Origin: a bacterium
GTDB lineage: Bacteria; Moduliflexota; Moduliflexia; Moduliflexales; JAUQPW01
Assembly (NCBI GenBank): GCA_030550175.1
Contig: JAUQPW010000001.1
Coordinates: 10,898-74,897 of the forward strand
Length of the DNA stretch: 64,000 nt
Direction of reading: 5' to 3'
Positions 10,751-56,950 of the stretch are shown piece after piece; position 1 is the first letter of the stretch; every line of letters begins with the position of its first letter. A model generated the notes under the pieces. It saw only the letters and a program-made list of their open reading frames with translations. It had not been told where the DNA came from and made no database searches. The position numbers and the translations under genes are program-made.

Positions 10751-10952
10751 AGCAGGACCTCTTCGTGATCAATCCCAGGTTCCATAAGTTCATATCGGTT
10801 TCTTCTGAGCAAGGGCCAGGACTCTGCCTGCTACAGAAAGACTGTAGAACGCTATGCTACTGATTCTCAGATATGAACTTTTGAAACGGGTTGACGGTTA
10901 ATTGAACTATTAAGAGACAAAGTGAAGGAAGATAAAGACCTTATTTTAAGTT

Positions 10953-11387: not shown

Positions 11388-11870
11388 TTTAAATAATCAG
11401 GAATCGATTTTCCCCTCTTACATAAAAAAACTGACCTCTACAGGTCTATCAACGAATATAAAGTAAAGTCTCCCCCTCCATGCAAGCAAGGGAGACAAAG
11501 AAATTTGTTGACAAAAATTCTATCAGCCAACTAAAGTCAGTTTATACTTCCAAGATCACCATTACAATAACCGAATAAAGTAAATACTATACTTTTGCCG
11601 TTTTTAACTCTTAATCCCTGAAGGACTAAGAAGAACTATGAAAAGCATGAGAGTATAGGAGTTTGGGAGTATGGGAGGGTTTAAATCTATACGCCCTTAT
11701 CTTCCTGATTCCATACTCTTCGTGGACAAACCAAATCCACAGTTTAGAAAAAATGCGAAGGTATAGGAACTATACCGATAACTAAAAAAGAAGTCCTTAA
11801 AAGTAACGGGAACTTATAGAGCCAAAAAGGCTGGAGTTCTCGGTTTATTTGATAGGGCAAAACTTCTATT

Positions 11871-19141: not shown

Positions 19142-19194
19142 CTATTGACCTTATTTATCCAGGAAGGACTATCTCTGAGACACAGGAACTTGGG

Positions 19195-19250
19195 GGACGC
19201 AGGGAAATATCTCCACATCTCCGCGTCTCCCTATCTCCGTGTCTCAATAG
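19195..19250. repeat. Short repeat (atctccacatctccgcgtctccctatctcc) bounded by the inverted repeat gagacac/gtgtctc; a near-copy lies inside the sucB linker
   Basis: Compare 23158-23225 atctccacctctccgcgtctcc[gcgtctccgcatctccgcgtc]cctctatctcc. Confidence 0.5.
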
Positions 19251-31397: not shown

Positions 31398-32324
31398 ATG
31401 GAAGCCATTAAAATCAGCCATCTTACAAAGACCTTTGGGGACTTACGAGCGGTTGACGACCTTACTCTTAGTGTATCTCAAGGAGAGATCTTCGGACTCG
31501 TGGGCCCGGACGGGGCCGGGAAGACCACAACCCTGCGGCTCCTCACGGCGATTCTGAATCCTACTTCAGGAGATGCCTGGATAATGAACAAACATATTGT
31601 TCGGGAAGCAGAAGCTCTTAAGGAAGAGATCGGTTACCTGAGCCAACGCTCTGGACTCTACCCGGACCTGACAGTAATGGAAAATATCCATTTCTACGCA
31701 GATATCTATGGCGTACCGCGCAGGAGCCGAGATCCAAAGATTGATGAATTACTCTCTTTCAGTAATTTGACCCCTTTCAAAAATCGCCTGGCAGGAAATT
31801 TATCAGGTGGGATGAAGCAAAAACTTGGCCTGGTTTGTGCGCTGATCCATACTCCAAAGGTACTCTTCCTGGATGAGCCGACCAACGGTGTGGATCCCAT
31901 TTCACGCAGGGACTTCTGGCGCATCCTGTATCAACTACTCCGTGAGAAAGTTACCATCTTTATTTCCACCGCTTATCTCGATGAAGCCGAGCGCTGCAAT
32001 CGGGTGGGTCTCATCCATAAAGGCAGACTTCTTGCCTATGGAACTCCCCTGGAGGTGAAGAAGTTGATGCAGGGAACCATCCTCGAGGTTTGCCCATCAG
32101 AGCCACGTAAAGCTACAACCCTCTTGCGCCAACGGTTTGGAGCCGGCCTGGTAAGCCTTTTCGGCGATCGTATTCACGTTGTAACCCAAGAACCAGACCG
32201 GACCATGGTTCAGGTGAAAGGAGTCCTCACCGGAGCCGGCCTTAAAGTCTTCGATATCCGGTCTATCGAACCGACGCTTGAGGATGTGTTTATCTCGGTC
32301 CTCGCTAGGGAAAAAGGACCATGA
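31398..32324 (+). CDS. ABC transporter ATP-binding protein (ABC-2 subfamily)
   Basis: Walker A GPDGAGKTT, signature LSGGMKQKL, Walker B LFLDEPT. Confidence 0.9.
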   Translation: MEAIKISHLTKTFGDLRAVDDLTLSVSQGEIFGLVGPDGAGKTTTLRLLTAILNPTSGDAWIMNKHIVREAEALKEEIGYLSQRSGLYPDLTVMENIHFYADIYGVPRRSRDPKIDELLSFSNLTPFKNRLAGNLSGGMKQKLGLVCALIHTPKVLFLDEPTNGVDPISRRDFWRILYQLLREKVTIFISTAYLDEAERCNRVGLIHKGRLLAYGTPLEVKKLMQGTILEVCPSEPRKATTLLRQRFGAGLVSLFGDRIHVVTQEPDRTMVQVKGVLTGAGLKVFDIRSIEPTLEDVFISVLAREKGP

Positions 32325-34483
32325 ACACCAGTAAAAATGAAAAGGCTGTGATCGTAAAGGACCTGGAAAAGCGGTTTGGTAGCTTCATTGCCGTGAATCG
32401 CATCAGTTTCGAGGTTGCTAAAGGAGAGATTTTCGGTTTCCTGGGTCCCAACGGTTCGGGCAAATCCACAACAATTCGTATGCTGTGTGGTATTCTGGCT
32501 CCTACTGCTGGGACAGGAACGGTTGCCGGATTTGATCTTCGTACCGAAGCGGAGAAGATCAAGGCCCATATTGGTTACATGAGCCAGAAGTTCTCGCTCT
32601 ATGAGGATCTCACCGTCGAGGAGAATATAACCTTTTACAGCGGCATCTACCGCATCCCTCCGGAAAAAAAGAAGGAGCGTAAGGAATGGGTCATGGAGAT
32701 GGCCGGTCTCAAGGAGCATCGACATTCTCAAACAGCCATTCTGTCAGGTGGCTGGAAGCAGCGATTGGCCCTGGGGTGTGCCATTCTCCACGAGCCGCCG
32801 ATTCTCTTCCTGGACGAACCGACGTCGGGTGTGGACCCTATCAGTCGTCGCCAGTTCTGGGATCTGATCTATGAGCTTTCCGGCAAAGGAGTGACGGTCT
32901 TCGTCACCACCCACTACCTGGATGAGGCTGAATATTGCGACCGTATCGGCTTTATCCACCAAGGTAAGTTGATCGCCGTAGGATCCCCTCAGGTGCTCAA
33001 GGCCGAATTCATACAAGAAGATATCCTAGAAGTCTTGTGTGAACGGCCTCAGGACGTAATAGATGAGATCGAGAAGGTGGCAGGTGTCAAGGAAGTCACT
33101 CTGTTCGGTCAGGGATTGCATATCACGACCGGGGAGAGCCATAAGGTTTCAGCAACTGTTCAGAACCTCCTCAACGTGCGAGGTTATCCGGCCGACCATA
33201 TCAAGAAAATAACCCCTTCCCTGGAGGATGTATTTGTTTCACTCCTTTCGACCCGGGATCGAGACCTCACTCCTTTTCCCCATCCTCACCCTTTCATACC
33301 TCCTCTCTCCCAAATTGGAAAAGGGGGAAGGGAGGTGAGAGAAGGTTCGACAAAGTTATTGCGAATTTGGGCAATTGCCCGTAAGGAGTTTACTCATATC
33401 ATCCGCGATCCCCGAAGCCTCGGAATGGCCGTTGCCATTCCGATACTCATGTTGGTACTCTTTGGTTACGCACTGACGTTAGACGTGGATAATGTGCCGA
33501 TGGTTATCTGGGATCAGAACAACTCCCGGATAAGTCAGGAGTTTATCAGTCACTTCGACGGTTCTCGCTATTTCTCAATTCGGGGGTATGCCCGTAACTA
33601 TCAGGAAGTTGAGCGGGCCATTGATTCCGGACAGGCCCTTCTAGCCCTCGTTATTCCGACAGATTTCGCCCAGCGTATCGAGTCCGGGCGGTCGGTTTCG
33701 GTTCAATTGATTGTGGACGGGAGTGATTCCAACACAGCGATTATCGCCATAGGCTATGTCGAGGCGGTAACTTTGACCTATTCCCGAAGTATGGCCATTG
33801 AGGAGATCCAGAGAGTCGGCGGGCGTACACCTTATCTACCGCTGGAGTTGCGACCCCGGGTTTGGTTTAATACTGACATGGAATCCAAAAATTACATCAT
33901 CCCCGGCCTCATCGCCGTGATTACCATGGTGATCGCAGCACTTTTGACTTCTCTAACCGTGGCCCGCGAATGGGAACGCGGCACCATGGAGCAGTTAATT
34001 TCTACACCCGTCAAGGGCCAGGAACTGATCCTTGGGAAGCTTCTACCTTACCTTGCCATCGGTATGTTTAACGTGCTGCTGGCCGTGCTTATGGGCCAGT
34101 TCGTATTTCAGGTTCCCCTACATGGTAATGTGGCTTTACTCTTTGGGGTAGCTTTCATATTTGTAACAGGGGCTTTATCTCTGGGCATGCTGATTAGTAT
34201 CGTGACCAAGAACCAGCTTTTGGCTAACCAATTGGCTATGGTACTGACCTTTCTGCCCTCGTTTCTGCTATCCGGATTTGTGTACGCCATTAGCAATATG
34301 CCCCTGGTACTTCAACTGATCACGTACCTGATCCCTGCCAGGTATTTCATGACCCTCCTCAAGGGTATCTACCTGAAAGGTATAGGGTTAGAGATCCTTG
34401 CCATGGAGACAGGCCTCCTGACCCTCTTCAGTGCGGCCATGGTAACTCTGGCCAATCTAAAGTTCAAGAAGAAGCTGGAGTAG
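32321..34483 (+). CDS. Fused ABC ATP-binding domain + ABC-2 permease; linker contains a repeat-derived hairpin
   Basis: N-terminus has GPNGSGKST, LSGGWKQRL and LFLDEPTSGVDP. C-terminal 6-TM ABC-2 permease. The linker ...TRDRDLTPFPHPHPFIPPLSQIGKGGREVREGSTK is encoded by a CT-rich/GA-rich hairpin (33268-33345). Confidence 0.85.
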   Translation: MNTSKNEKAVIVKDLEKRFGSFIAVNRISFEVAKGEIFGFLGPNGSGKSTTIRMLCGILAPTAGTGTVAGFDLRTEAEKIKAHIGYMSQKFSLYEDLTVEENITFYSGIYRIPPEKKKERKEWVMEMAGLKEHRHSQTAILSGGWKQRLALGCAILHEPPILFLDEPTSGVDPISRRQFWDLIYELSGKGVTVFVTTHYLDEAEYCDRIGFIHQGKLIAVGSPQVLKAEFIQEDILEVLCERPQDVIDEIEKVAGVKEVTLFGQGLHITTGESHKVSATVQNLLNVRGYPADHIKKITPSLEDVFVSLLSTRDRDLTPFPHPHPFIPPLSQIGKGGREVREGSTKLLRIWAIARKEFTHIIRDPRSLGMAVAIPILMLVLFGYALTLDVDNVPMVIWDQNNSRISQEFISHFDGSRYFSIRGYARNYQEVERAIDSGQALLALVIPTDFAQRIESGRSVSVQLIVDGSDSNTAIIAIGYVEAVTLTYSRSMAIEEIQRVGGRTPYLPLELRPRVWFNTDMESKNYIIPGLIAVITMVIAALLTSLTVAREWERGTMEQLISTPVKGQELILGKLLPYLAIGMFNVLLAVLMGQFVFQVPLHGNVALLFGVAFIFVTGALSLGMLISIVTKNQLLANQLAMVLTFLPSFLLSGFVYAISNMPLVLQLITYLIPARYFMTLLKGIYLKGIGLEILAMETGLLTLFSAAMVTLANLKFKKKLE

Positions 34484-35616: not shown

Positions 35617-35689
35617 TGGCTAAAGAAATTGCTAAAGAGGGTTAATAATACCAAGTCGGTATTGAAATGTGGTGGGTAAAGTAGGGACA

Positions 35690-35900
35690 GCCCCGCCCAG
35701 CCCTCCCCGCATGCGGGGAGGAAAGGAGGTTAGGTTAGAAAAAACCTACCTCAGAAAAGGGGAAGGGGCTACCTGCTTGAGAGCGACTGACAGGGGTAGC
35801 TCCAGATGGTTGTCCTGTTGGAAGGGTAGATAGTTGCCGCCCGGCCCTTTAGGCAACATTTTTATTGTGAAGGGGAGGAAATAGTAACGAAATAATCCCC
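35690..35900. repeat. GC-rich hairpin repeat cluster (family B copy ccctccccgcatgcggggagg 35701-35721, plus further hairpins)
   Basis: Near-identical to 15551-15572. Additional hairpins include aggttagaaaaaacctacct and ggctacc...ggtagc. Confidence 0.55.
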
Positions 35901-35961: not shown

Positions 35962-38754
35962 ATGAAAAATCCTGTTACGCCAACTACGGATCCCGTCCAT
36001 GATGTTCTGCGTTATGAACGTCAACCTCTGGATGCGATCTTCGCACCGCGGAATGTTGCTGTAATCGGTGCGACCGAAAAGACTGGCAGTGTCGGACGTA
36101 CCGTTTTGTGGAACCTCATCCATAATCCCTTTGGTGGAGCCGTTTTTCCTGTCAATCCGAACCGACATAGTGTATTGGGGATCAAAGCCTATCCCCATAT
36201 TGGAGCGGTACCCGATCCGGTGGACCTTGCTGTTATTATCACACCGGCACCTACGGTCCCTGGGATCATAGGAGAGTGTGTCGATGCCGGTGTAAAAGGA
36301 GCGATTATCATCTCCGCCGGTTTCAAGGAGTGTGGGCCGGAAGGGGCTGAGTTAGAGCAACAAATCCTTGAGCAGGCACGTCGCGGGAAGATACGCATTA
36401 TCGGACCCAATTGCCTGGGTGTGATGAACCCGCTTACCGGTCTTAACGCCACCTTCGCCAGGACTATGGCACGACCCGGGAATGTCGGCTTTATCAGCCA
36501 GAGTGGTGCGCTGTGTACAGCTATCCTGGATTGGAGTTTACAAGAGAATGTAGGATTCAGTGCCTTCATCTCCATTGGCTCTATGCTTGACGTCAGTTGG
36601 GGGGATCTCATTTATTACCTAGGTGACAATCCCCACACCCACAGTATCGTCATTTATATGGAATCTATAGGGGATGCCCGGTCGTTCCTCTCTGCTGCTC
36701 GGGAAGTAGCCCTCACTAAACCCATCATTGTCATCAAGGCCGGTCGTACAGAGGCTGCTGCGAAGGCTGCAGCTTCCCATACTGGGGCTCTCACCGGTAG
36801 CTATGAAGTCCTGGAGGCAGCTTTTCGTCGTTGCGGTGTGCTTCACGTCAATAATATTGCCTATCTTTTCTATATGGCCGAAGTACTCGCCAAGCAACCA
36901 CGTCCACAAGGTCCACGGTTAACGATTCTCACCAACGCCGGTGGTCCCGGCGTGCTTGCCACCGATGCCCTGATCGCAGAGGGGGGAGAACTGGCGGAAT
37001 TATCCCCGGAAACCCTGGAATCCCTTAACCGGCTTCTCCCGGTTTACTGGAGCCATAACAACCCTATCGATATTTTAGGAGATGCCGACCCTCAGCGATA
37101 TGCAAAAGCCCTGGAGATTGCCGCGAAGGATCCGAATAGTGATGGTCTATTGGTCATTTTGACTCCCCAGGCGATGACCGATCCGACCCAAACGGCAGAG
37201 CAGTTGAAAGCTTACGCCCGGAATAGCCACAAACCTATCCTCGCCAGCTGGATGGGTGGGGCCGATGTTGCAGCGGGAACAGCGATTCTTAACCAGGCTG
37301 GTATTCCTACTTTTCCTTACCCGGACACAGCTGCCCGGGTGTTCAATTACATGTGGCGGTATAGCTATAACCTGCGGGGTCTATACGAAACTCCGGTCCT
37401 CCCGGCAGGGGTAGGGGGATATGAGAGTATCAACACCTCTACTCCCACACCCCCACACTCCCATACTCCTGTATCCCCATTCCAGCGGGCCGAGGAGATT
37501 ATTCAAACTGCCCGCAAGGCCGGTCGAACCCTTCTCACCGAGCCCGAATCCAAGCAGCTCCTCGCCGCCTATGGCATCCCAACGGTGGAAACCCGGGTTG
37601 CTACCCATGAAACCGAGGCGGTCAGACTTGCAGAGGAAATCGGCTACCCAGTTGTCCTCAAGCTCTTTTCTGAAACCATTACCCACAAGACCGACGTGGG
37701 CGGTGTTCAGTTGAATCTGATCAACGCCGAGGCTGTCATACAGGCTTATCGTGCCATCGAATCTTCCGTGCGTGAAAAGCAAGGGGCCAAACATTTCTTA
37801 GGTGTGACCGTCCAGCCCATGATCAAATGGGAAGGTTATGAAATCATCCTCGGCAGTAGTGTTGATCCTCAGTTCGGTCCGGTATTGCTTTTCGGCTCCG
37901 GAGGTCAATGGGTGGAAGTATTTAAAGACCGCGCCCTGGCACTCCCACCCCTTAATACCGTCCTGGCACGGCGAATGATGGAGCAGACCCGTATCTATAC
38001 CGCCCTCAAAGGTATCCGAGGACGTAAATCAGTGGATCTGGCTGCCCTTGAACAACTCCTGGTCCAATTCAGCCAACTGGTCGTCGAACAACTTTGGATC
38101 AAGGAAATTGATGTTAACCCCTTACTGGTCTCTCCTGAACGATTAATTGCGCTGGATGCGCGGGTGATTTTGCACGAACCCCATATCCCGGAAGATAAAC
38201 TACCCAGGCCGGCCATCCGCCCGTACCCAACCCAATATGTATCACCCTGGACCTTGAAGGATGGTACTCCCATCATTATCCGCCCGATCCGCCCTGAAGA
38301 CGAGCCCCTGATGATCAACTTCCACAAAACCCTCTCCGAACGCAGCGTATATTTCCGCTACTTTTATCCCATGCAGTTGAGTCAGCGTATTGCCCATGAA
38401 CGGTTGACACATATGTGCTTCATCGACTACGACCGCGAAATGGCCCTCGTCGCAGACTATACGGATCCTAACACCGGTACCCACGAGATTATAGCCGTTG
38501 GCCGTTTAAGAAAATTGCACGGTACCCCGGAAGCCGAGTTTGCCCTCCTCGTCAGCGATCGATATCAACATCAGGGATTGGGTACCGAGTTGTTACGCAG
38601 ACTCCTGCAGGTCGGTCGTGACGAAAAACTTCAGCGTATCGTCGCCGATATTCTTCCCGAGAATCGAGATATGCAACGGGTCTGTGAGAAACTAGGTTTC
38701 CGCCTCCGCTGGGTAGCCACTGAAGGGGTAATAAAGGCAGAAATCGATCTCTGA
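35962..38754 (+). CDS. pat: Pat-like protein lysine acetyltransferase: ADP-forming acyl-CoA synthetase (alpha+beta) fused to a C-terminal GNAT domain
   Basis: N-terminal CoA-binding/succinyl-CoA-synthetase-like domains ([17 protein letters not shown]-grasp). C-terminal GNAT ([14 protein letters not shown]...[17 protein letters not shown]). A linker [14 protein letters not shown] is encoded by the cacactcccatac repeat. Confidence 0.8.
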
Positions 38755-38880: not shown

Positions 38881-39511
38881 ATGGCTATTTTAAGCTTTGC
38901 CTGGACCAAAGATGAATTTCTCAGTGGCAAAAAGACGGTTAGCCGACGGTGTTGGAAAGAACGTCAGTTAAAAATGTGGCAAAGGCTATGGGATAGTGGG
39001 CGGCTTGTACATGAAACATGGGATAAAGCTCCCTTTGCAGGCGGTAAGTGGACCCATCCGAAGACCCGCCGAATGGGCAATTCTCAAAATAGAACCGTTT
39101 ACCGACGTCCAGTTATGGTTTGAAGCTCGCTGCGATGCTCTCTTAGAACAAAAGGGCCGAGATATTATTCTTATCTTTGGCTATCAGTCCCCAACTTTCT
39201 ATTATGCCCATTTATCCAATCAAACCGACCGGGTTCATAATGGGATTTTCCTTGTCAACGATGCAGATCGGCAACGAATTGATAATGGAAAGGGAATCGC
39301 CCGGCTGATAGATAATAACTGGTACGCCATCCATCTCATACGAAATGTCCAGACAGGTGCTATTCAGGTTTATGTCTCCGATATGCAAACACCGGCACTT
39401 TCTGCTAACGACACCACCTTACAGTGGGGTCGTGTGGGTGTTGGATCCTTTGACGATACAGGAGCATTTAAAAACATTCGCGTGGCCGGTAAGTTAATGT
39501 CTTCAGAATAA
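38881..39511 (+). pseudogene. DUF1080 (LamG-like, 3-keto-disaccharide-hydrolase fold) gene split by a frameshift near 39050
   Basis: Two overlapping ORFs in frames 1 and 2. The frame-2 part carries the DUF1080 pattern (FTDVQLWFEAR..., DNNWYAIHL..., C-terminal GRVGVGSFDDTGAFKNIRV). Confidence 0.4.
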
Positions 39512-39768
39512 AGACAGGAAGTGAGAGGAGCCCTCTCTTACCTTCCCTGTGGGTGGGGAGGGTGGAGAGGTGCATCTATTGAACCAATACAGACTCAAAT
39601 TCCAATAATAGGGTTGACACTTTAGATCCCCGGATATAAAGTCAAATCATATTTTAAAAATCCCAAGGTAAGACCTGTTTGGGAAAAATCGGAATTCTGA
39701 GCAGGTTTATACCGATAATTACGTTCAGGTAATTAAATCCTCACAATCTGGAAAGGAGTGAAGAAACC

Positions 39769-41823: not shown

Positions 41824-41943
41824 GGTTTTGAAGATTCCGAGTATTGCACACCTTGTAATTACTGCAAGCAACCTGCAAGGGAAAAACTCCTGTTTATGAG
41901 GGAGTCGGGAGTAAAAAAATATACAAGGAAAAGTGATAACCTT

Positions 41944-42984
41944 ATGTACCCTGAAATTTCCCTTATCCAACGCTTAGAATTGCTTAAGCCACCTCAAAAT
42001 AAAGTATCCATGGTCCTCGATACCGATCCCTACAATGAAATGGATGATCAATTTGCCATCGTCTACTCATTGCTGGCGCCGGAACGCCTGGAAGTGAAGG
42101 CCATTTATGCAGCACCATTTGCCAATGCCAGATCGGGAAACGATGAAAAACGCGGTATGGAAAAGAGTTACGAAGTTGTAAAGGAAATATTGGATAAGCT
42201 GCAAGGACCCGAATTACCCCATATTCCTCCGGTATTTCGAGGATCTGACCGATGGATTTCCGAGGATAATGCAGGATTTAAGGGTACGGCCATTCGGAGT
42301 GAAGCGGCAGAGCATCTGATTCATCTGGTCGAAGCCCAACCAGAAGGTAAATTCCTCTACGTGGTCGGTATTGCGGCTATCACGAATATTGCCTCGGCCA
42401 TTCTACTCAAGCCGGAAATTATCCGAAAAATGGTAGTGGTCTGGCTTGCCGGTCATCCCTATAATTATTACGACACCGACGAGTTCAATCTACGACAGGA
42501 TATTTATGCTTCGCGTGTGATACTGGATTGCGGGGTCCCGCTTGTACGGATACCCTGTCGTAATGTGGCTGAACACTTACTCCTAACCGTGGAAGAGGTA
42601 GAGAATCGCATTAAAGGGCGAGGTGAAATCGGAAATTATCTCTATAAAGCGTACCATGAATATCTCGAAGAGAAGAAGTTCATTTCCAGGCCTATCTGGG
42701 ACATGGCTCCTATTGCCTGGCTTGTTAATCCTACGTGGGTCGAGACGGTAATTATTCCCACTCCGCTCCTCGCAGTCAGCCCGCTGCAAACCGAAGGCTA
42801 CTCCACCCCCTTCCTGACCCAAAAACTAACGTTTGAGAAAAACAGAAAAGCTTACTGTACCTGGAACAATGATCCACGTCGTCATTTGACCCGAGAAGCT
42901 TACAGGTTGAACCGGGATGCTATCTTCCAGGACTTTTACCATCGATTAGATAAATATAGGGGGGTTGGAAAAATTGAAAATTAA
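41944..42984 (+). CDS. Inosine-uridine-preferring nucleoside hydrolase family protein (the ORF opens at 41896)
   Basis: DTDPYNEMDDQFAIVYSLL matches the IUNH aspartate cluster DTD.G.DD..A. Confidence 0.75.
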   Translation: MYPEISLIQRLELLKPPQNKVSMVLDTDPYNEMDDQFAIVYSLLAPERLEVKAIYAAPFANARSGNDEKRGMEKSYEVVKEILDKLQGPELPHIPPVFRGSDRWISEDNAGFKGTAIRSEAAEHLIHLVEAQPEGKFLYVVGIAAITNIASAILLKPEIIRKMVVVWLAGHPYNYYDTDEFNLRQDIYASRVILDCGVPLVRIPCRNVAEHLLLTVEEVENRIKGRGEIGNYLYKAYHEYLEEKKFISRPIWDMAPIAWLVNPTWVETVIIPTPLLAVSPLQTEGYSTPFLTQKLTFEKNRKAYCTWNNDPRRHLTREAYRLNRDAIFQDFYHRLDKYRGVGKIEN

Positions 42985-43004
42985 ATCGGCAAAATGAAAA
43001 TGAA

Positions 43005-43418
43005 ATGGTAAAACCTTTAATCGTTCTTGATACCAATGTCTTCGTCGCGGCAGGTTTTAACCCGGAAAGTTCATCGGCGCAGATCCTCGAACAGATAAGG
43101 AGTGGACAGATCCGAATGGTCTGGAATGAACAGATCCGACAGGAAATTCAGCATATTCTTCGGAAGATCCCCCATCTCTCCTGGGAACAGGTATCCAGCT
43201 TATTCAAAGAAGAAGATTACTACACGGGTGAAACCCATTTTGAGAAATTTAACTTTATCGCCGATCCGGACGATCGAAAGTTTGTAGCCCTTTCGGAGGC
43301 TAGCGGAGCGGTCCTGATTACCATGGATTACGACCTTTTGAGTATTCGTAATGAGGTATCGATACCCATTCTGACACCTGGTGAGTTCTTGAGTAATTCG
43401 ACTCGATTCATCAGGTAG
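43005..43418 (+). CDS. PIN-domain protein (VapC-like toxin fold, COG1569-type)
   Basis: LIVLDTNVFVAA N-terminal acidic motif plus distal D residues (FIADPDDRKFVALSEA...ITMDYD). Confidence 0.7.
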   Translation: MVKPLIVLDTNVFVAAGFNPESSSAQILEQIRSGQIRMVWNEQIRQEIQHILRKIPHLSWEQVSSLFKEEDYYTGETHFEKFNFIADPDDRKFVALSEASGAVLITMDYDLLSIRNEVSIPILTPGEFLSNSTRFIR

Positions 43419-43426
43419 AAATAAGT

Positions 43427-43810
43427 ATGAATCCATTCAGTCATATCGATGTTCGTGTTAAAAGCCTTGAGAGAGCTTTACCGTTTTACTCGGTTGTTTT
43501 ATCTGCTCTGGGATTCAAGCGAACATTTCACAGTGGAGGATGGAATGTGTTTGCCGGTGACGGGGACTTACCGAGTGTACCTTACTTTGCAATAACCGAA
43601 GATCCCGAGCATCAGCCAAACAAGAATCGAATTGCGTTTTGGCTGCCCAGTCGTGAAGAAGTCGATCGACTCAGTATTCTGATCCGTGGGGCCGGTGGAA
43701 ATATCACCGCCGGACCCAAGCTGTTTCCGGAAATCAGTTCCAGTTATTATGCACTTTATTTTGAAGACCCCAGTGGTAACCGGCTCGAGTTAGTTCATAG
43801 AACTGATTAG
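43427..43810 (+). CDS. VOC-family (glyoxalase/bleomycin-resistance fold) protein
   Basis: 127 aa. HIDVRVKSLERALPFY...FEDPSGNRLELV. Confidence 0.7.
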   Translation: MNPFSHIDVRVKSLERALPFYSVVLSALGFKRTFHSGGWNVFAGDGDLPSVPYFAITEDPEHQPNKNRIAFWLPSREEVDRLSILIRGAGGNITAGPKLFPEISSSYYALYFEDPSGNRLELVHRTD

Positions 43811-43851
43811 GACTATCTTGTTAGAGCCGCCCGGGGAAAGGAGCGAACAAT

Positions 43852-44493
43852 ATGAAAATAGGTATTCTTGGAACAGGGGATGTAGGCCAGGTATTAGGAT
43901 CTGGATTTGTGAAACTAGGCCACTCGGTTAAAATGGGATCTCGAAATCCTAACCAGGAAAAAATCAAGGCCTGGCTTGCCAAGACGGGAGCCAACGCTTC
44001 GGCAGGCACCTTTGCAGAAGCTGCAGCCTTTGGGGATCTTGCGGTATTGGCAACGCTGTGGGCCGGAACGGAAAATGCAATTCGTCTGGCGGATCCTAAA
44101 AACCTGGCCGGGAAAGTCGTGATCGATGCAACCAATCCTCTGGATTTCTCCTCCATGCCCCCTAAACTGGCAGTAGGCCACACAGATTCCGGTGGGGAGC
44201 AGGTACAACGCTGGCTTCCAAACTCCCATGTGGTAAAGGCGTTCAACAGTGTGGGTAGCCCACATATGGTCCGTCCGGATTTTCCAGGAGGTCCCCCCGA
44301 TATGTTTATCTGTGGTAATGATACCAAGGCCAAGGAAACCGTAACGGATTTGCTAAAAGCATTTGGGTGGTCTGTGGTCGATATCGGTGGGATCGAAGGA
44401 TCCCGATACCTCGAACCCCTGGCCATGATTTGGATTCTCCAGTTCTTCAGAACCCGAAGCGGGAACCATGCCTTTAAGCTTCTGCGGAAATAA
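43852..44493 (+). CDS. NADP oxidoreductase, coenzyme-F420-dependent family (Npd-like dinucleotide-binding protein)
   Basis: MKIGILGTGDVGQVLGSGFVKLGHSV Rossmann start and F420_oxidored-type C-terminus. Confidence 0.7.
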   Translation: MKIGILGTGDVGQVLGSGFVKLGHSVKMGSRNPNQEKIKAWLAKTGANASAGTFAEAAAFGDLAVLATLWAGTENAIRLADPKNLAGKVVIDATNPLDFSSMPPKLAVGHTDSGGEQVQRWLPNSHVVKAFNSVGSPHMVRPDFPGGPPDMFICGNDTKAKETVTDLLKAFGWSVVDIGGIEGSRYLEPLAMIWILQFFRTRSGNHAFKLLRK

Positions 44494-44505
44494 TCTAATG
44501 AATAG

Positions 44506-45135
44506 GTGAGGAACATGATAATTCAGGATGTGGGACAGCAACATTTGACCAGGATTCAGCCAACAACGGAAGGTATCCGTACCTGGAGAACCTATCTCAA
44601 GGAGTATCAATTTAATAAAAAATATCCGGACGATGCCTATGTGTGGCTTACCTGTATTCTGGCATTGGAGGCCGTTGGGGTCGGCAACTTTGGGGTTGGG
44701 TGTATTTTGATTAATAATCAAGGTGACATATTAGCTCAAGGGCATAACAAAATATTCCATCCTTACTTTCGGAGTGATCGACATGCTGAAATGGTTGTCA
44801 TGGATGACTTTGAGGATGCCCATCCAGAACCTAGCGGGTTGGGTGCTTACTCTTTATATACCTCTCTGGAGCCCTGCCCCATGTGCCTGGTACGATTGAG
44901 TACCTCGGGGATAAACAAAATACTATTTGCTGCCCCGGATGTGTCAGGGGGTATGGTTCATCGAATGAATAACTTACCACCCTTCTGGTTTGAGTTGGCC
45001 CAAGGGAAAATATTTAGCCAGGCACAGTGCTCGCCGGATTTGGTTCATGCGGCTACGCAGATCCTACTTCTTAATTTAAATGAACTAACAACTGAAGTCA
45101 AAGTCAGACAGCGTAAAGTATCCGTATCAATTTAG
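44506..45135 (+). CDS. Cytidine/deoxycytidylate-deaminase-fold (CDA) nucleoside/nucleotide deaminase
   Basis: Zinc-binding H-A-E (RHAEMVV) and PCxxC (LEPCPMCLVRL) motifs. Confidence 0.7.
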   Translation: MRNMIIQDVGQQHLTRIQPTTEGIRTWRTYLKEYQFNKKYPDDAYVWLTCILALEAVGVGNFGVGCILINNQGDILAQGHNKIFHPYFRSDRHAEMVVMDDFEDAHPEPSGLGAYSLYTSLEPCPMCLVRLSTSGINKILFAAPDVSGGMVHRMNNLPPFWFELAQGKIFSQAQCSPDLVHAATQILLLNLNELTTEVKVRQRKVSVSI

Positions 45136-45151
45136 TAGGTGGAAAAAGAAA

Positions 45152-45214
45152 CACCCCCCTGGCCTCCCCCCTCTAATTCCCCCGTATACGGGGGAGGGGG
45201 GGCCAGGGGGGTGT
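45152..45214. repeat. Perfect nested GC palindrome (possible REP-like element or terminator) downstream of the deaminase gene
   Basis: acacccccctggcc tcccccct ctaatt cccccgtatacggggg agggggg ggccaggggggtgt. No T-tract follows. Confidence 0.55.
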
Positions 45215-45315
45215 GTTCAGACAGAAAAGGTGACACCTACTAAATTGTTCCAGTTACCAGCGTAAAATGAGGTAAAACGATTCTATTTGGTATCGAAAAT
45301 GGAGGTCATATAACC

Positions 45316-46128
45316 ATGATAGAGAGAAAACCGCGGCTGGCCGGGAAGGTTGCCATTGTTACAGGAGCCGGCTCCAGGGGACCAGGCATTGGTAATGGCA
45401 AAGCCACGGCCATTCTCTTTGCCCGAGAAGGGGCCAAAGTTCTGTTGGTGGATAAATTTGCCGACCGCGCTGAAGAAACCCATCGGATCATCCAGGAGGA
45501 AGGAGGAGAAAGCACCGTGTTTGAGGCCGATGTGACCCAGGAAAACCGGGTGCGGGATATGGTAGAATATACCCTAGAGCGATATGGAAGATTGGACATC
45601 TTGCATAATAACGTTGGAGTAGGGATGCCCGGGTCTGTCCTGGATGTGACCGAGAGGGATTGGGACCGAACCATGGCCATCAACTTAAAAAGCATGCTGT
45701 TTTGTAGCAAACATGCCATCCCCAAGATGATCCAGGGGGGTGGTGGCTCTATTATTAATATCTCTTCTGTGGCCGGGATGCGAGGCCACGGCCTCGTTGC
45801 TTATGCTGTCTCTAAAGGCGGTGTCATTGCCCTCACACGTACCATGGCGGTCCAACATGCCAGGGACAACATTCGGGTAAATTGTATTGCTCCCGGCCCC
45901 GTTTATACCCCCATGGTTGCCGAGAGTCTGACCGAAGAAGAGCGTATCCTCCGTAAGAACGCTGTACCGTTGGGTATTGAAGGTACGGCATGGGATGTTG
46001 CCTGGGCGGCCGTCTATCTGGCCAGTGATGAGGCACGGTGGGTGACCGGTGTGGTGTTACCGGTTGATGGGGGTTTAACAGCCACCACTCACCCTATCGT
46101 TACCCGGATAAAATTCTCCGAACAGTAA
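45316..46128 (+). CDS. SDR-family oxidoreductase (3-oxoacyl-ACP-reductase-like)
   Basis: GKVAIVTGAGSRGPGIG, NNVG, catalytic YAVSKGGV (Y-x3-K) and IRVNCIAPGPVYTPM. Confidence 0.85.
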   Translation: MIERKPRLAGKVAIVTGAGSRGPGIGNGKATAILFAREGAKVLLVDKFADRAEETHRIIQEEGGESTVFEADVTQENRVRDMVEYTLERYGRLDILHNNVGVGMPGSVLDVTERDWDRTMAINLKSMLFCSKHAIPKMIQGGGGSIINISSVAGMRGHGLVAYAVSKGGVIALTRTMAVQHARDNIRVNCIAPGPVYTPMVAESLTEEERILRKNAVPLGIEGTAWDVAWAAVYLASDEARWVTGVVLPVDGGLTATTHPIVTRIKFSEQ

Positions 46129-46896: not shown

Positions 46897-47889
46897 ATGG
46901 TTCGATTTAAATATCTTATGGGGCTTATAAGCTTAATTTTAGCTGTTCAGTTTTTACTTCCTTATCAGGTCGAGGGTGGGGATAAAAAATTAAAAGTAGC
47001 CATGATTCTTCCCGGTCGAATCAACGATGTATCCTGGAACCAGGCAGCCTATGAAGGACTCAAGCAGGCTGAAAAGGAGTTGGGGGTTGAGATAGCCTAT
47101 ACCGAGAATGTCAGTGTGGCCGATGTGGAAAGGGTTTTGAGAGAATATGCTACGGCGGGATACGATCTCATTTTAGCCCACAGTTTCAACTATGGAGATG
47201 CGGTATTTAAAGTCGCTCAGGACTTTCCAAAAATTAAATTTGGATGGGCTACCGGTTTTAAGTCGGCTCCCAACGTAGCTTTCTATGACTGGCCCGCCCA
47301 TGAAGTAGGATACCTGGTAGGAATGCTGGCAGCTTCCATGAGCAAAACCGGAAAAATCGGTGCTCTGGGGGGATTCGATGTGCCGGATGTTGTCCGGGCC
47401 ATAGAGGGTTTTAAATTGGGAGCTAAAGCGGTAAATCCTGAGATTAAGGTTTTTACAACCTACATTGGGGATTGGGAGGATGCTGCAAAAGCTAAAGAAG
47501 CTGCTCTGGCCCATATCGAAAACGGAGCAGATGTCGTTTATATTAATGGGGATGGAATTAGTTACGGAGTTATCGAAGCTGCCAAGGAAAAGGGGGTATA
47601 TGCCATCGGTGGTATTGCAGATCAGTATTCTCTCGCTCCGGAAACCGTTCTCAGCAGTACCGTACTGAATGTAGGATTTACAATCAAAAAAATGATCGAG
47701 GACGTTCAGGCCGGTAAATTTAAAGAAAGTTATCTGTATAGCTTAAAAGAAGGTGGAGTGGATATTGCACCTTATCACGAACTGGAAAAAGTGATCCCCC
47801 AGGAAGTAAAAGATAAAATTGCCAAAGCTAAAAAGGATATTCTGGAGGGAAAGCTCCAGGTGCCGGATATTGTTAAACCAACGGAGTAA
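46897..47889 (+). CDS. BMP-family ABC transporter substrate-binding lipoprotein (PnrA/TmpC-like nucleoside-binding)
   Basis: Signal/lipobox region, then KVAMILPGRINDVSWNQAAYEGL, typical of the Bmp/Med family. Followed by its ATPase and two permeases. Confidence 0.85.
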   Translation: MVRFKYLMGLISLILAVQFLLPYQVEGGDKKLKVAMILPGRINDVSWNQAAYEGLKQAEKELGVEIAYTENVSVADVERVLREYATAGYDLILAHSFNYGDAVFKVAQDFPKIKFGWATGFKSAPNVAFYDWPAHEVGYLVGMLAASMSKTGKIGALGGFDVPDVVRAIEGFKLGAKAVNPEIKVFTTYIGDWEDAAKAKEAALAHIENGADVVYINGDGISYGVIEAAKEKGVYAIGGIADQYSLAPETVLSSTVLNVGFTIKKMIEDVQAGKFKESYLYSLKEGGVDIAPYHELEKVIPQEVKDKIAKAKKDILEGKLQVPDIVKPTE

Positions 47890-48066
47890 GTATGGGAGTG
47901 GGAAGTATGGAAGTGGAAAAGTATGGAAGTATGGGAGTGGGGAAGTGGAGACTCGTCCACACTCTCACACCCCCATACTTCCATACCCCTATACCCACTC
48001 CCATACCCCCACACTCCCATACTTCCATACCCCCATACTTCTCCACTCTCATACCTCCATACTTTC
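47890..48066. repeat. Long imperfect hairpin built from tandem gtatggRagtgg units and their complement (ccacactcccatac...)
   Basis: 47890-47950 holds four direct units. 47960-48066 is approximately their reverse complement. The motif acccccacactcccatact also occurs in frame inside the pat linker (37455-37475). Confidence 0.65.
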
Positions 48067-49617
48067 ATTCTTTTAAGGATAGATAAAATCACTAAACGGT
48101 TCCCAGGGGTTCTTGCCAATGATCAAATTTCATTGGAAATCGAGGCAGGGGAGGTGCATGCGTTGTTAGGTCAGAATGGGGCCGGTAAGACTACGTTGAT
48201 GAATATTCTCTATGGTCTTTATCAACCGGACTCCGGTCAAATTTATTTTAAAGATCGAAAGGTTAAAATAAGCTCTCCTCGAAAAGCTATTGAATTGGGA
48301 ATTGGAATGGTTCACCAGCATTTCATGCTAATTCCCGACTTTACAGTTGCCGAGAATATCCTGATCGGCTTTAAGCAGAGGGGCCCCTTTTTAAATCTTA
48401 AAAGAGTCGAACAGGCTGTAGCCGAACTTTCTCACCGTTATAGACTTCAAGTAGACCCGACGGCCAGAGTTCAGCACTTATCTGTCGGAAGTCGACAAAG
48501 GGTTGAGATTATCAAAGCCCTTTATCGCGGAGCCGAGCTTTTGATTCTCGATGAGCCTACATCGGTTCTAACTCCCCAGGAAACCCATGAACTTTTCCAG
48601 ATCTTGCGGACCCTCACAGCTCAAGGGAAGTCCGTTATTTTCATCACGCACAAATTGAACGAGGTAATGCAGGTATGTGATCGGGCGACAGTTTTAAGAA
48701 ATGGAAGGAAAGTGGGAACGGTTAAAATCCAGCAGGAAGGACCTGAAAAAGAAGTAATTAAAGAGAATCTGGCTCGAATGATGATCGGTAAAGAGGTTTC
48801 CCTGGAAACCGAAAGAACAGCACTTAAAAAGAAGCCTGTTCAGTTCGGTAAGGAGGTTTTAAAAGTCGAGGAGTTGGAAGCCGTAAACGATCAAAATCGG
48901 CTCGTTTTAAAAAAAATTTCCTTTTCTGTCCGGGCGGGTGAAATTTTGGGGATTGCCGGTGTAGCCGGCAATGGTCAGAGCGAACTGGTAGAAGTCCTGG
49001 CCGGGTTACGTAAAGCCGTGGGTGGAAGGGTCTTCCTGAACGGTCAAGAGGTTTTGAATGAGCCCCCACGTAAGCTTTTGGAGGGAGGGATTGCCCACAT
49101 TCCGGAGGATAGGTTAAGAATGGGTCTTGTACTGGATTTACCTTTACCGGAAAATGCCATCCTGGGTTCTTTTCATAAAGCTCCTTTTTCCTTCAAAATA
49201 GGAAACGCTCTTCCTGGGCCTCGTTGGTTAAATTATACCGAGATTCGAAAGTTTACAGAACGCCTTATCATTTCCTATGATATCAAAACCCCCCATCCAG
49301 AAGCCACCATGCGAATGCTTTCAGGGGGAAATCAGCAAAAATTCATAGTAGGTCGCGAACTCACCCGGTCTCCGAAAGTACTGCTGACCGTTCAACCCAC
49401 CATGGGTCTCGATATAAAAGCTACCGAGTTTGTTCATCAGAAATTCTTAGAACAACGAGAAAATCAGGTGGCCATTCTCTTAATTTCCACTGAACTGGAT
49501 GAAATATTAGCCCTCAGTGATCGCGTGGCCGTCCTCTATGAAGGGCAAATTGTCGGACTCCTTCCTGCCGATCAGGCTGATAGAGAAATCCTGGGACGCT
49601 GGATGAGTGGATTATGA
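47923..49617 (+). CDS. ABC transporter ATP-binding protein with duplicated NBDs (nucleoside/sugar importer type); 5' end buried in the repeat, true start uncertain
   Basis: Two NBDs (GQNGAGKTT and second-domain signatures). The conserved N-terminus begins about LRIDKITKRFPGV (~48073). There is no ATG/GTG/TTG in frame between 47923 and 48100, so initiation would be inside the repeat. Confidence 0.8.
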   Translation: MEVWEWGSGDSSTLSHPHTSIPLYPLPYPHTPILPYPHTSPLSYLHTFILLRIDKITKRFPGVLANDQISLEIEAGEVHALLGQNGAGKTTLMNILYGLYQPDSGQIYFKDRKVKISSPRKAIELGIGMVHQHFMLIPDFTVAENILIGFKQRGPFLNLKRVEQAVAELSHRYRLQVDPTARVQHLSVGSRQRVEIIKALYRGAELLILDEPTSVLTPQETHELFQILRTLTAQGKSVIFITHKLNEVMQVCDRATVLRNGRKVGTVKIQQEGPEKEVIKENLARMMIGKEVSLETERTALKKKPVQFGKEVLKVEELEAVNDQNRLVLKKISFSVRAGEILGIAGVAGNGQSELVEVLAGLRKAVGGRVFLNGQEVLNEPPRKLLEGGIAHIPEDRLRMGLVLDLPLPENAILGSFHKAPFSFKIGNALPGPRWLNYTEIRKFTERLIISYDIKTPHPEATMRMLSGGNQQKFIVGRELTRSPKVLLTVQPTMGLDIKATEFVHQKFLEQRENQVAILLISTELDEILALSDRVAVLYEGQIVGLLPADQADREILGRWMSGL

Positions 49618-50759
49618 AAAAGCCGGTAGAGAAAAATACAGAGAAAAACAGGAAAGTCCAGGAATGGAGAAGGGGGAGATCTTTTCTGTTCCTCTATTCC
49701 CCCCTTCTCTCATTTTTTCTTGCGATTCTACTGGCCTTCCTGCTGAGTAGCCTTCTCATAAGTTGGATAGGCGCCAGCCCCCTGTTAGCCTTTAAAGCCC
49801 TTATTTTGGGGGCTTTTGGGAGCTTAAACGGTTTTACGGAAACCCTTGTTAAGGCAACTCCGTTGATGTTAACGGGACTTGGGTTATGTGTGGCTTTTAG
49901 AAGTAAGGTTTGGAATATAGGAGCCGAAGGTCAGATTCATCTGGGCGCTTTAGCAACCACCTTAATGGGAGTTTACCTGCCCCATTTTCCTTCTTTCATT
50001 TCCTTAACTCTTACGGGATTGGCCAGCTTTTTTGCCGGAGGCTTCTGGGCAGCCATACCCGGATGGCTCAAGATACGATGGGGAGTTAATGAGATTATTA
50101 CCACCTTAATGATGAACTATATTGCCATCCTCGGAATTAATTATGCCGTTCACGTTCCCTTGAAAGAACCCGGTGGATTTTTACCCCAGTCGGCCTTGAT
50201 TCAACCATCTGTGGAACTTCCGATTTTAGTTGAACGAACCCGACTCCATGCCGGTATTCTTCTAGGAATTGCCGGAGCCGGAGTCCTCCATATCCTCCTG
50301 GCACGGACTACGCTGGGTTATCAAATTCAGGTTGTCGGTTTAAATCCCGATGCCGGTCGATGTAGTGGAATTCCTGTAGGAAAAATTATCCTCATCGCCA
50401 TGGTACTCAGCGGAGGATTTGCCGGTTTAGCCGGTATGGGTGAAATTGCCGGGGTTCATCATCGCCTTCTGGAAAATTTCTCACCGGGATACGGATATAC
50501 TGCCATTGTAGTTGCTTTACTTGCAGATTTAAAACCTCTGGCTGTAATCTTAGTTAGTATCCTATTTGCGGCTCTTATTGTTGGAGCAGATACCATGCAA
50601 CGGGTTGCAGGAGTTCCTAACTCTTTAGTATTGATTATCGAAAGCCTCATCGTTCTCTTTGTATTGGGAAGTCGTGCGTTGTCCTATGTTCGTCATCCGT
50701 TGTTTTTCGTAAAGGATAACGGACAAAGAACAACGGAGGGAAAGCTACGGATATCTTAA
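49614..50759 (+). CDS. ABC transporter permease (BMP/nucleoside system, first permease)
   Basis: 381 aa, multi-TM. Start overlaps the ATPase stop (ATGA). Confidence 0.85.
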   Translation: MKKPVEKNTEKNRKVQEWRRGRSFLFLYSPLLSFFLAILLAFLLSSLLISWIGASPLLAFKALILGAFGSLNGFTETLVKATPLMLTGLGLCVAFRSKVWNIGAEGQIHLGALATTLMGVYLPHFPSFISLTLTGLASFFAGGFWAAIPGWLKIRWGVNEIITTLMMNYIAILGINYAVHVPLKEPGGFLPQSALIQPSVELPILVERTRLHAGILLGIAGAGVLHILLARTTLGYQIQVVGLNPDAGRCSGIPVGKIILIAMVLSGGFAGLAGMGEIAGVHHRLLENFSPGYGYTAIVVALLADLKPLAVILVSILFAALIVGADTMQRVAGVPNSLVLIIESLIVLFVLGSRALSYVRHPLFFVKDNGQRTTEGKLRIS

Positions 50760-51682
50760 CCCAGGCTTTTATTGTCGGAGTCCTGGCATCGGGAGTACGG
50801 CTGGCCGTTCCTATTCTACTGGCAGCTTTGGGCGAAATCTTTTCAGAAAGGGCCGGCATCCTCAATATTGGGATCGAAGGGGAGATGCTGGTAGGAGCTC
50901 TGGCCGGATTCCTGGGAACTTTCTATACCCATCATGTGGGATTAGGGTTCCTGATCGGAATGGCGGCAAGTGGAGTTTTTAGCCTGATTATGGGCTTTAT
51001 AACTATTACCTTAAAAAGAGATCAGGTCATTACCGGAATTATCCTTAATATATTGGCCCTTGGATTAACGAGTTTCGTCTACAGGGCCTTATTCGGTACC
51101 TCCCGAACGCCTCCCAGTATAAAGCCGTTAACTCCCCTTAAAGTCCCGATCTTAGGGGATATCCCTTATATAGGAACTATCCTTTTTCATCAGAATCTTT
51201 TGGTTTACCTGGCCTTTTTATTGGTTCCTGTGAGTGCCTGGATTCTTTTTAAGACCCAATTTGGATTAAATTTAAGAGCCGTTGGTGAACATCCTCGGGC
51301 CGCAGATACATTGGGAGTCCCTGTGGAGAGAATGAGATATATCGCAGTGATTCTGGGAGGGATCTTCTCCGGTTTGGGGGGTTGTTTTTTGACCCTGGCC
51401 CAGCTAAATCGATTTACCGACAATATAACTGCCGGACGTGGGTTTATTGCCATTGCAGCGGTTATATTTGGAAAATGGAATCCCTACGGTGTCGCCCTTG
51501 CAACACTTCTTTTCGGAATCGCCGATGGACTTCAATTAAGACTTCAAGCCCTGGGTACCAAGCTTCCATATCAGTTCCTCTTGATGCTCCCGTATATCTT
51601 AACCATTGTAGCCTTGGTTGGAATCGTGGGAAAATCAAAACCCCCGGCAGCCCTAGCGGTTCCCTATCAAAAGGATAATTAA
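50720..51682 (+). CDS. ABC transporter permease (second permease); annotated ORF starts at TTG 50828 but the conserved N-terminus is encoded from ~50720 without a canonical start
   Basis: Upstream in frame: TDILTQAFIVGVLASGVRLAVPILLAALGEIF, the typical first TM of this permease family. A frame-2 stop sits at 50717-50719. Confidence 0.7.
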   Translation, partial: RTKNNGGKATDILTQAFIVGVLASGVRLAVPILLAALGEIFSERAGILNIGIEGEMLVGALAGFLGTFYTHHVGLGFLIGMAASGVFSLIMGFITITLKRDQVITGIILNILALGLTSFVYRALFGTSRTPPSIKPLTPLKVPILGDIPYIGTILFHQNLLVYLAFLLVPVSAWILFKTQFGLNLRAVGEHPRAADTLGVPVERMRYIAVILGGIFSGLGGCFLTLAQLNRFTDNITAGRGFIAIAAVIFGKWNPYGVALATLLFGIADGLQLRLQALGTKLPYQFLLMLPYILTIVALVGIVGKSKPPAALAVPYQKDN

Positions 51683-51762
51683 CCATCAGCCATCAACAAT
51701 TAACAATCAGCAATTAACAAATTTTTGTTTATTGCTCTTTGTTCATTGTTCCTTGAGTAAAG

Positions 51763-56886: not shown

Positions 56887-56950
56887 TGAGATTTATGGTT
56901 GATGGTGGTTAGATCGGATGAGATTTATGGTTGATGGTGGTTAGATCGGA
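56887..56950. repeat. Perfect 32-bp tandem duplication (tgagatttatggttgatggtggttagatcgga x2) within a 1.1-kb non-coding leader
   Basis: Copy 1 is 56887-56918 and copy 2 is 56919-56950, identical. Each contains a mini-ORF ATG GTT GAT GGT GGT TAG (MVDGG*). Confidence 0.8.

Follow-up and report, generated by a model that had tools for sequence, protein, structure and literature searches.

The Bmp-ATPase junction of the transporter operon

The stretch analyzed here (the window) comprises 64,000 nt of bacterial contig JAUQPW010000001.1, and all positions are given in its numbering. It carries an ABC transporter operon that begins with the gene for a Bmp/PnrA-like substrate-binding lipoprotein, syntenic in all relatives, and continues with the genes for an ABC ATPase and for permeases 1 and 2 (Table 1). 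Orthologous junctions or operons in other assemblies are designated L001, L002, L003 and so on. Between the stop codon of the Bmp gene (TAA, 47887-47889) and an ATT codon at 48067, the proposed start of the ATPase gene, lies a spacer of 177 nt (47890-48066) that consists of a G-rich arm followed by a C-rich arm of short tandem units. The unit GTATGG occurs four times in the G arm (at 47890, 47905, 47921 and 47929), where Tandem Repeats Finder (TRF) detected 7.5 copies with a period of 8. In the C arm the same program detected periods of 8 (9.2 copies) and 16 (6.4 copies), and a repeat search identified 11 in-register copies spaced 8 nt apart. Inverted-repeat arms within the spacer matched over 47 nt with 79%, over 22 nt with 95% and over 13 nt with 100% complementarity.

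Table 1. Positions of the operon genes, the parts of the spacer, the candidate ATPase starts and the other repeat hairpins of the window.
Feature	Position	Strand	Details
Bmp/PnrA-like substrate-binding lipoprotein gene, first in operon	46897-47889	+	Pfam PF02608 Bmp, E = 3e-69
G-rich arm of spacer	47890-47950	+	61 nt, 8/16-nt period, begins directly after Bmp stop
Apical loop, approximate (GACUCG region)	47951-47955	+	from minimum free energy structures
C-rich arm of spacer	47956-48066	+	~110 nt, CCCATAC/CACACTC-type octamers
ATT, proposed non-canonical ATPase initiation codon	48067-48069	+	aligns with orthologue ATG; invariant in six alleles
ABC ATPase gene, two ABC_tran domains	48067-49617	+	Pfam PF00005; 516 codons from ATT
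TTG 48133 and GTG 48154	48133-48156	+	gene-caller starts in relatives, giving 494 and 487 aa
Permease 1 gene	49614-50759	+	ATG overlaps ATPase stop (ATGA)
Permease 2 gene	50753-51682	+	no canonical start at true N-terminus; candidates ATC 50753 and ATT 50771
Hairpin in linker of Pat-like acetyltransferase, G arm/C arm, in frame	37407-37484	+	residues ~483-508
Octamer hairpin, second unit family (GGGGACGY / GGAGAYGC; GGGGACGT / GGAGACGC)	23050-23250	-	in E2 acyltransferase gene 22167-23474
Hairpin forming linker (DLTPFPHPHPFIPPLSQIGKGGREVRE) of fused ABC-2 ATPase-permease, C arm/G arm	33264-33347	+	gene 32321-34483, 720-aa open reading frame
Intergenic hairpin with GTATGGGAG-type units, as in the ATPase spacer	11646-11722		-34 kcal/mol, z = -5.7
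Intergenic hairpin, GGAGACGC octamer family	19190-19250		between convergent genes
Other intergenic G/C-arm hairpins (CCCTCTCC...GGAGAGGG type)	4050-4175, 8640-8980, 35640-35760, 39490-39600		z = -3.4 to -7.9
Heptamer-unit hairpin, AATCAAC-type array then TTGTTCA-type complement	51677-51755		-21.9 kcal/mol, z = -4.9

RNA folding of the window allele gave -86.1 kcal/mol, compared with -53.1 ± 4.2 kcal/mol for 200 dinucleotide-shuffled sequences (z = -7.8), and none of the 200 folded as well. The fold and the four GTATGG units bear out the initial annotation of this DNA, which had described a long imperfect hairpin of short tandem units between the Bmp and ATPase genes. Its estimate of a ~85-bp stem was too high, since a G arm of 61 nt facing a C arm of ~110 nt forms a stem of ~55 bp (57 predicted pairs). 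The C arm has roughly double the length of the G arm, which allows alternative pairing registers: in the minimum free energy (MFE) structure of the window allele the foot of the stem lies ~20 nt upstream of the AUU, and alternative registers extend to 48065. The stem is followed by a partly U-rich tract (UUUCAUUCUUUU) in which the start codon is included. A consensus scan found no sigma-70-like promoter in the spacer, an Rfam search of the whole window gave no match, and a literature search on octamer-repeat hairpins returned nothing specific. The Bmp gene has a strong Shine-Dalgarno (SD) sequence (aaaggaggg; AAAGGAGGG) ahead of its ATG, whereas the ATPase gene has none.

Start codons of the ATPase and permease 2 genes

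The spacer is open in all three forward frames, and the only canonical start codon in frame ahead of the conserved ATPase N-terminus (LRIDKITKRF) in the window is ATG 47923 (47923-47925), which lies within the G arm and is the start used in the public annotation of this genome (564 aa). These points agree with the initial annotation, which had gone on to propose a repeat-derived 5' end for the ATPase gene. ATG 47923 is not conserved in relatives, where gene callers have instead chosen codons equivalent to TTG 48133 and GTG 48154. Initiation at either of these would cut the first 22-29 residues, including Phe12, the A-loop aromatic residue of ABC ATPases that stacks on ATP. Loss of the strand carrying Phe12 makes the TTG and GTG starts implausible.

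Alignment with more distant orthologues points to a different codon. The ATT at 48067 is aligned to the ATG of the closest outgroup orthologues (MLLQVKNITKRF against ILLRIDKITKRF), and the closest outgroup proteins (~55% identity, from several phyla) start with MLLQVKNITKRFPG. Among the homologues listed, the conserved Phe is residue 12 in 23 orthologues of the MLLQVKNITKRF type; read from ATT 48067, the window ATPase begins ILLRIDKITKRFPG and likewise has Phe at residue 12, with the Pfam ABC_tran match beginning at residue 19.

The junction was also compared among related metagenomic genomes, in which six distinct spacer alleles were recovered from ten assemblies with ATPases of 67-95% amino acid identity. 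The ATT is kept in all six alleles and in all ten independent assemblies (NCBI, JGI, ENA and Logan). In four of the six alleles an in-frame stop occurs upstream and no ATG, GTG or TTG is found between that stop and the conserved N-terminus; with the ATT at the orthologue ATG position in all six, this is contrary to the proposal that the repeat provides the start of the gene, and a leader rich in H, P, T and Y cannot be the solution that the clade has conserved. Downstream of the ATT, codons 1-22 differ among close relatives by 0-3 synonymous and 0-1 nonsynonymous codon changes, and comparison of 17 codons (DKITKRFPGVLANDQIS) with the 67%-identity relative revealed 10 synonymous and no nonsynonymous differences. 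Over the whole ATPase gene, 65-109 synonymous and 24-59 nonsynonymous codon differences were counted; the gene is under purifying selection, its first 22 codons included. Two features expected of a non-AUG start were found, namely a near-cognate codon at the AUG position of orthologues and coding constraint that sets in at the ATT next to hypervariable sequence upstream. The conserved ATT at the ancestral ATG position, the lack of an upstream start in four alleles and the coding constraint together suggest that translation of the ATPase most likely begins at AUU 48067.

In E. coli, AUU supports initiation at ~1-2% of the efficiency of AUG and is the natural start codon of infC and pcnB (10.1101/063800). 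The ATPase gene resembles these genes in having a conserved AUU at the start of an otherwise normal gene. It differs from them in that the AUU lacks an SD sequence and lies at the 3' foot of a hairpin of 125-215 nt, in that there is no sign of autoregulation of the initiation factor 3 (IF3) type, and in that a canonical start is missing from permease 2 of this operon as well.

Two other candidate routes into the ATPase frame were considered. Frameshifting (-1 or +1) from other frames at CUUUUAAGG has neither a conserved upstream start frame nor a stimulator in its favor. A Bmp-ATPase read-through fusion was rejected: four of the six spacers have lengths divisible by 3, but three of these four (L001, L002 and L088) contain in-frame stops, and Bmp is a lipoprotein.

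In the clade of the window, the frame at the start of permease 2 (50720-50830 in the window, 12597-12700 in L001) reads ACG GAT ATC TTA ACC CAG GCT TTT ATT GTC, with only synonymous changes in relatives, and the position of the ACG is occupied by GTG in the 67% relative. The gene call on the GCA_035559535.1 contig (L001) begins at the equivalent of the ATT, and other gene calls use a TTG 19-25 codons further in, which cuts part of the first membrane helix. In the 67% relative an octamer-type hairpin (GGCCGTAGGCCGTGGGCCGTAGGCAG ... CTGCCTGCGGC) lies between permease 1 and permease 2 (L003, 12700-12800), whereas the clade of the window has no spacer between these genes.

Structured spacers at the junction and their possible function

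A hairpin was found at the same junction in all six alleles, including that of the 67%-identity relative, in which its sequence is different. The alleles all fold strongly but vary in length, unit order and unit sequence, with the flanking coding sequence nearly unchanged. In addition to the window allele (177 nt, z = -7.8), they comprise those of L001 (213 nt; -104 kcal/mol, z = -5.8), L002 (141 nt; -90 kcal/mol, z = -8.0), L086/L087 (182 nt), L088/L089/L090 (126 nt) and L003/L084 (74 nt; -41 kcal/mol and z = -2.9 for L003). A further search of metagenome contigs with a degenerate junction pattern returned one locus, identical to L003, as independent confirmation.

Structure at this junction extends well beyond the clade. 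A scan of genome contigs with the ATPase listed at least 80 loci whose ATPases share no more than 54% identity, which were used as an outgroup, and tblastn placed a Bmp gene directly upstream of the ATPase in 45 loci among the matches listed (L004-L083). The Bmp-ATPase spacers of these 45 distant operons, which come from Bacillota, Chloroflexota, Actinomycetota and other phyla, measure 76-373 nt and have a median z of -4.5, with z < -2 in 44 of the 45. Length-matched control segments from within the ATPase genes had a median z of -0.33, and 9% of them fell below -2. A structured spacer 3' of the binding-protein gene is thus general in this operon family, and finding it in 44 of the 45 unrelated operons indicates that structure is selected for at this position. 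The window element has the corresponding attributes of position 3' of Bmp, a fold beyond that expected from composition and recurrence in orthologous operons.

We consider it probable that the element is this clade's form of the stem-loop that follows the binding-protein gene and that the ATPase starts at AUU 48067, and we infer both the hairpin's role and the use of the AUU from sequence comparison. Since a structured spacer is nearly universal at the junction, the hairpin is most likely the local counterpart of this stem-loop, with the gap 3' of the Bmp gene filled in this lineage by a hypervariable hairpin of 8-nt units. In the polycistronic mRNA a very stable stem-loop would extend from the Bmp stop codon to, or to just before, the ATPase start. 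It may act as a protector of the upstream 3' end, as a partial terminator or as a barrier to translation, and would in this way maintain abundant binding protein but little of the ATPase and permeases. The ATPase would initiate at the conserved AUU in the ancestral AUG position, its 5' end not being taken from the repeat. The intrinsic weakness of an AUU start would fit low expression of the ATPase, and initiation there could be aided if the stem is opened by ribosomes completing the upstream gene or a short open reading frame (ORF) through the repeat. Tuning of expression also appears to be visible in the translation signals of the operon, with an SD sequence and ATG for Bmp, an AUU lacking an SD sequence for the ATPase, a start overlapping the ATPase stop for permease 1 and a non-canonical start for permease 2.

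Several observations weigh against this explanation. Similar hairpins occur at many unrelated sites in the window, coding linkers included, and the hairpin at the ATPase junction could therefore partly reflect tolerance of the repeat at this site and not a function. A scan for consensus terminators made no call at the hairpin, either in the window or in L088; a canonical intrinsic terminator has a short GC-rich stem with a U-run within 0-2 nt, which is not the form of this hairpin, and in the window allele ~20 nt separate the foot of the MFE stem from the U-rich tract. The sense strand folded better than the antisense strand in four alleles, equally well in one and worse in the window allele, and with the two strands folding comparably the folding test does not demonstrate a constraint specific to the RNA strand. 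Finally, the window allele and that of the most distant relative do have an in-frame ATG in the repeat, and for these two alleles an ATPase bearing a leader may be produced.

If that ATG were the general start, translation from ATG 47923 would give the ATPase a leader of ~48 aa, rich in H, P, T and Y and encoded by the repeat. Its standing as the sole canonical in-frame start of the window, its use in the public gene call (564 aa) and the in-frame ATG in the hairpin of the most distant relative are all consistent with this, but we regard it as improbable given that the 95%-identical relative is among the four alleles with an in-frame stop and no ATG, GTG or TTG before the conserved N-terminus, that neither the sequence nor the length of the leader is conserved, that ATG 47923 is base-paired within the predicted stem, and that the outgroup proteins begin exactly at the position of the ATT. 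It is also unlikely, if less so, that the hairpin is simply one copy of a neutral or selfish, slippage-prone repeat found genome-wide, with no role in the operon, and that the ATT is an unrelated old mutation. Such a repeat would account for the many comparable hairpins elsewhere in the window (including the three in-frame linker copies), for the rapid change in unit number between alleles and for the inconsistent folding advantage of the sense strand; it would not account for a hairpin at the exact junction in six of six alleles, the 67% relative with its different sequence included, or for the strong structure that 44 of 45 unrelated operons from this family have in the corresponding spacer. 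An error of sequencing or assembly, or decay of the ATPase gene, is hardly credible. Such repeats are difficult to assemble and a canonical start is missing, but the ATPase gene is full length and under purifying selection, and the ATT and hairpin recur in the ten independent assemblies. The initial annotation had reasoned that a conventional start in orthologues would imply a sequencing error here: distant orthologues do have an ATG at this position, but the presence of the ATT in ten independent assemblies excludes that conclusion.

A more specific role for the structure would be to couple translation of the two genes, so that an AUU lacking an SD sequence is reached only by termination and reinitiation. 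Ribosomes might arrive there after ending at the Bmp UAA, which the stem would place beside the AUU, or after translating a short ORF from a start in the G arm, in which case they would melt the stem and terminate 7-20 nt beyond the AUU. In several alleles (L088 and L002) the closing pairs of the stem do join the Bmp GAG-UAA to the AUU(C), yet in the window allele the foot of the MFE stem is ~20 nt away from the AUU. In each allele, one or more ATG or GTG ORFs cross the C arm and either fuse in frame or end between ATT+7 and ATT+20, but such ORFs are expected from composition, since the G arm is rich in ATG and GTG and the C arm cannot encode stops, and their frame varies between alleles. The absence of an SD sequence at the AUU would fit coupling. 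Permease 1, with its ATGA overlap, also has the appearance of a coupled gene, as does permease 2, whose near-cognate start overlaps the stop upstream. On balance we hold this mechanism to be doubtful, and have equally little confidence in its extension, in which octamer copy number would retune or phase-switch the coupling device between strains and the same start logic would apply to permease 2. A stem-loop following the binding-protein gene, with AUU 48067 as the ATPase start, is the explanation that we favor.

Dispersed hairpins and their likeness to known repeats

The genome is generally rich in hairpin repeats, at a density of ~1 hairpin per 6-7 kb in the window (Table 1). Exact copies of the 19-mer ACCCCCACACTCCCATACT are present at two sites, 48005-48023 and 37449-37467, compared with 0 expected by chance, and a 13-mer searched with up to two mismatches gave 15 matches compared with 0.89 expected, at 11653-11681, 37446-37466 and 47890-48038. 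The initial annotation had thus rightly reported that the motif recurs in frame in the linker of the Pat-like gene, though at 37455-37475 and as a shared motif; the site in fact holds a small but complete hairpin with both arms.

The Pat hairpin lies between the Ligase_CoA_2 and ATP-grasp_5 domains and corresponds to an insertion of ~16-19 residues that is confined to the clade in an alignment of 18 orthologues. The insertion is missing from an 83%-identity relative and from every protein more distant than that (more than 15 orthologues in all), is 8 residues longer (24 nt, or three octamers) in a 92%-identity relative, and belongs to a linker whose length varies among members of the 90% cluster. 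Comparison of filled and empty sites indicated that an ancestral acidic linker was replaced, with no target-site duplication. In L086 the Pat-like gene (10001-12817) is called as two ORFs, one of 830 aa and the other a GNAT of 104 aa, suggestive of a frameshift or stop close to the GNAT junction.

Two further genes carry hairpins in frame. In the E2 acyltransferase gene a 200-nt hairpin encodes the entire linker between the lipoyl and E3-binding domains (EVEEGRGEVEIEGRGDAETRRRGEVEMEGRGEME...PPHPGVPTSPRPR). For the fused ABC-2 gene, the ATPase and permease of L086 (7620-7800) are separate genes that overlap at GTGA and have no hairpin between them; from this comparison, insertion of the repeat appears to have shifted the frame and fused the two genes. 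Among the intergenic copies, the heptamer-unit hairpin fills the spacer between permease 2 and a spermine-synthase-like gene. A perfect tandem duplication of a 32-nt unit (TGAGATTTATGGTTGATGGTGGTTAGATCGGA, two copies) was also noted in the intergenic region 56887-56950, and its fold is not significant (z = 0.2). Pfam scans of 30 window ORFs revealed no transposase or REP-associated tyrosine transposase (RAYT), and a protein search with the peptide encoded by the repeat gave no matches. The family looks like hairpin-forming short tandem repeats that grow and shrink in place.

Within ABC operons of enterobacteria, malE-malF and hisJ-hisQ are examples of junctions with intercistronic hairpins of repetitive extragenic palindromic (REP) sequences or bacterial interspersed mosaic elements (BIMEs), and a stem-loop 3' of the binding-protein gene raises expression of the binding protein relative to that of the membrane components. 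The element described here is similar in being a stable stem-loop directly 3' of a binding-protein gene inside an operon, and in belonging to a dispersed hairpin family whose copy number at the locus varies between strains. It differs from REP/BIME sequences, which have a conserved imperfect palindrome of 30-40 nt and a 5' GTAG, in that its hairpins are built of 8-nt tandem units and are three to six times longer (60-220 nt); only the 8-nt units are common to loci and alleles that otherwise differ, and GTAG is sporadic in the units. Three copies lie in frame inside genes, unlike the strictly extragenic REP/BIME sequences, and the RAYT transposase associated with these was, as noted, not found among the ORFs scanned. 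REP hairpins serve as terminators and mRNA stabilizers (PMC3333891). [quoted passage not shown]

The copies within genes recall the Rickettsia palindromic elements (RPEs), hairpin repeats inserted in frame at structurally tolerant positions of unrelated coding genes (PMC10969869). In the same manner, the hairpins in the interdomain linkers of Pat, E2 and the ABC-2 fusion are in frame and leave the proteins intact. RPEs are ~150 bp long with a conserved family consensus and a conserved peptide, whereas the hairpins described here are low-complexity octamer arrays of variable length that apparently grow in situ, as in the empty Pat site that lacks a target-site duplication, and their host lineage is unrelated. 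Given the taxon and the low complexity, membership of these hairpins in the RPE families by sequence is implausible.

Short tandemly repeated repetitive (STRR) heptamers are dispersed in cyanobacterial genomes. The window repeats share with STRR sequences very short tandem units dispersed between genes, and the hairpin at 51677-51755 is itself made of heptamers; they differ in their 8-nt unit, in the arrangement of an array followed by its inverted complement, and in taxon and sequence. As in simple sequence repeat (SSR) contingency loci such as the CTCTT repeat of Neisseria opa, the unit is not a multiple of 3, copy number varies between close relatives and the repeat lies between possible upstream starts and the gene body. 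Unlike in such loci, neither the proposed AUU start nor the intact ORF depends on repeat number, and an on/off logic is not apparent, the repeat placing an in-frame ATG in only two of the six alleles.

The transporter operon (46897-51682) adjoins nucleoside hydrolase (IU_nuc_hydro) and cytidine/dCMP deaminase genes (41896-46128 region), and the window also encodes ribonucleotide reductases (NrdD-like and class II) and NrdR. These neighbors in nucleoside metabolism are consistent with nucleoside uptake by a Bmp-type transporter, and a role in nucleoside uptake, predicted from the gene neighborhood, fits this operon.

Intercistronic stem-loops, non-AUG starts and palindromic repeats in coding sequence are each of a known kind. 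What is unusual is their combination: a hypervariable hairpin of 8-nt units whose foot carries a conserved, probable AUU start, another non-canonical start within the operon and colonization of protein linkers that includes an apparent gene fusion. One practical consequence is that the ATPase has been deposited as a protein of 564, 494 or 487 aa in genomes that are at least 90% identical at the protein level, an inconsistency that arises because gene callers ignore AUU; the correct product is probably 516 aa, and permease 2 is a second gene in the operon with the same annotation problem. The in-frame linker hairpins extend palindromic repeats in coding sequence of the Rickettsia type to an uncultured and poorly sampled lineage, and the octamer-repeat alleles form a natural series for relating stem length to the stoichiometry of binding protein and transporter. 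Beyond this clade, the structured spacer between Bmp and the ATPase may be a general and little-described regulatory feature of Bmp/PnrA-type ABC operons.

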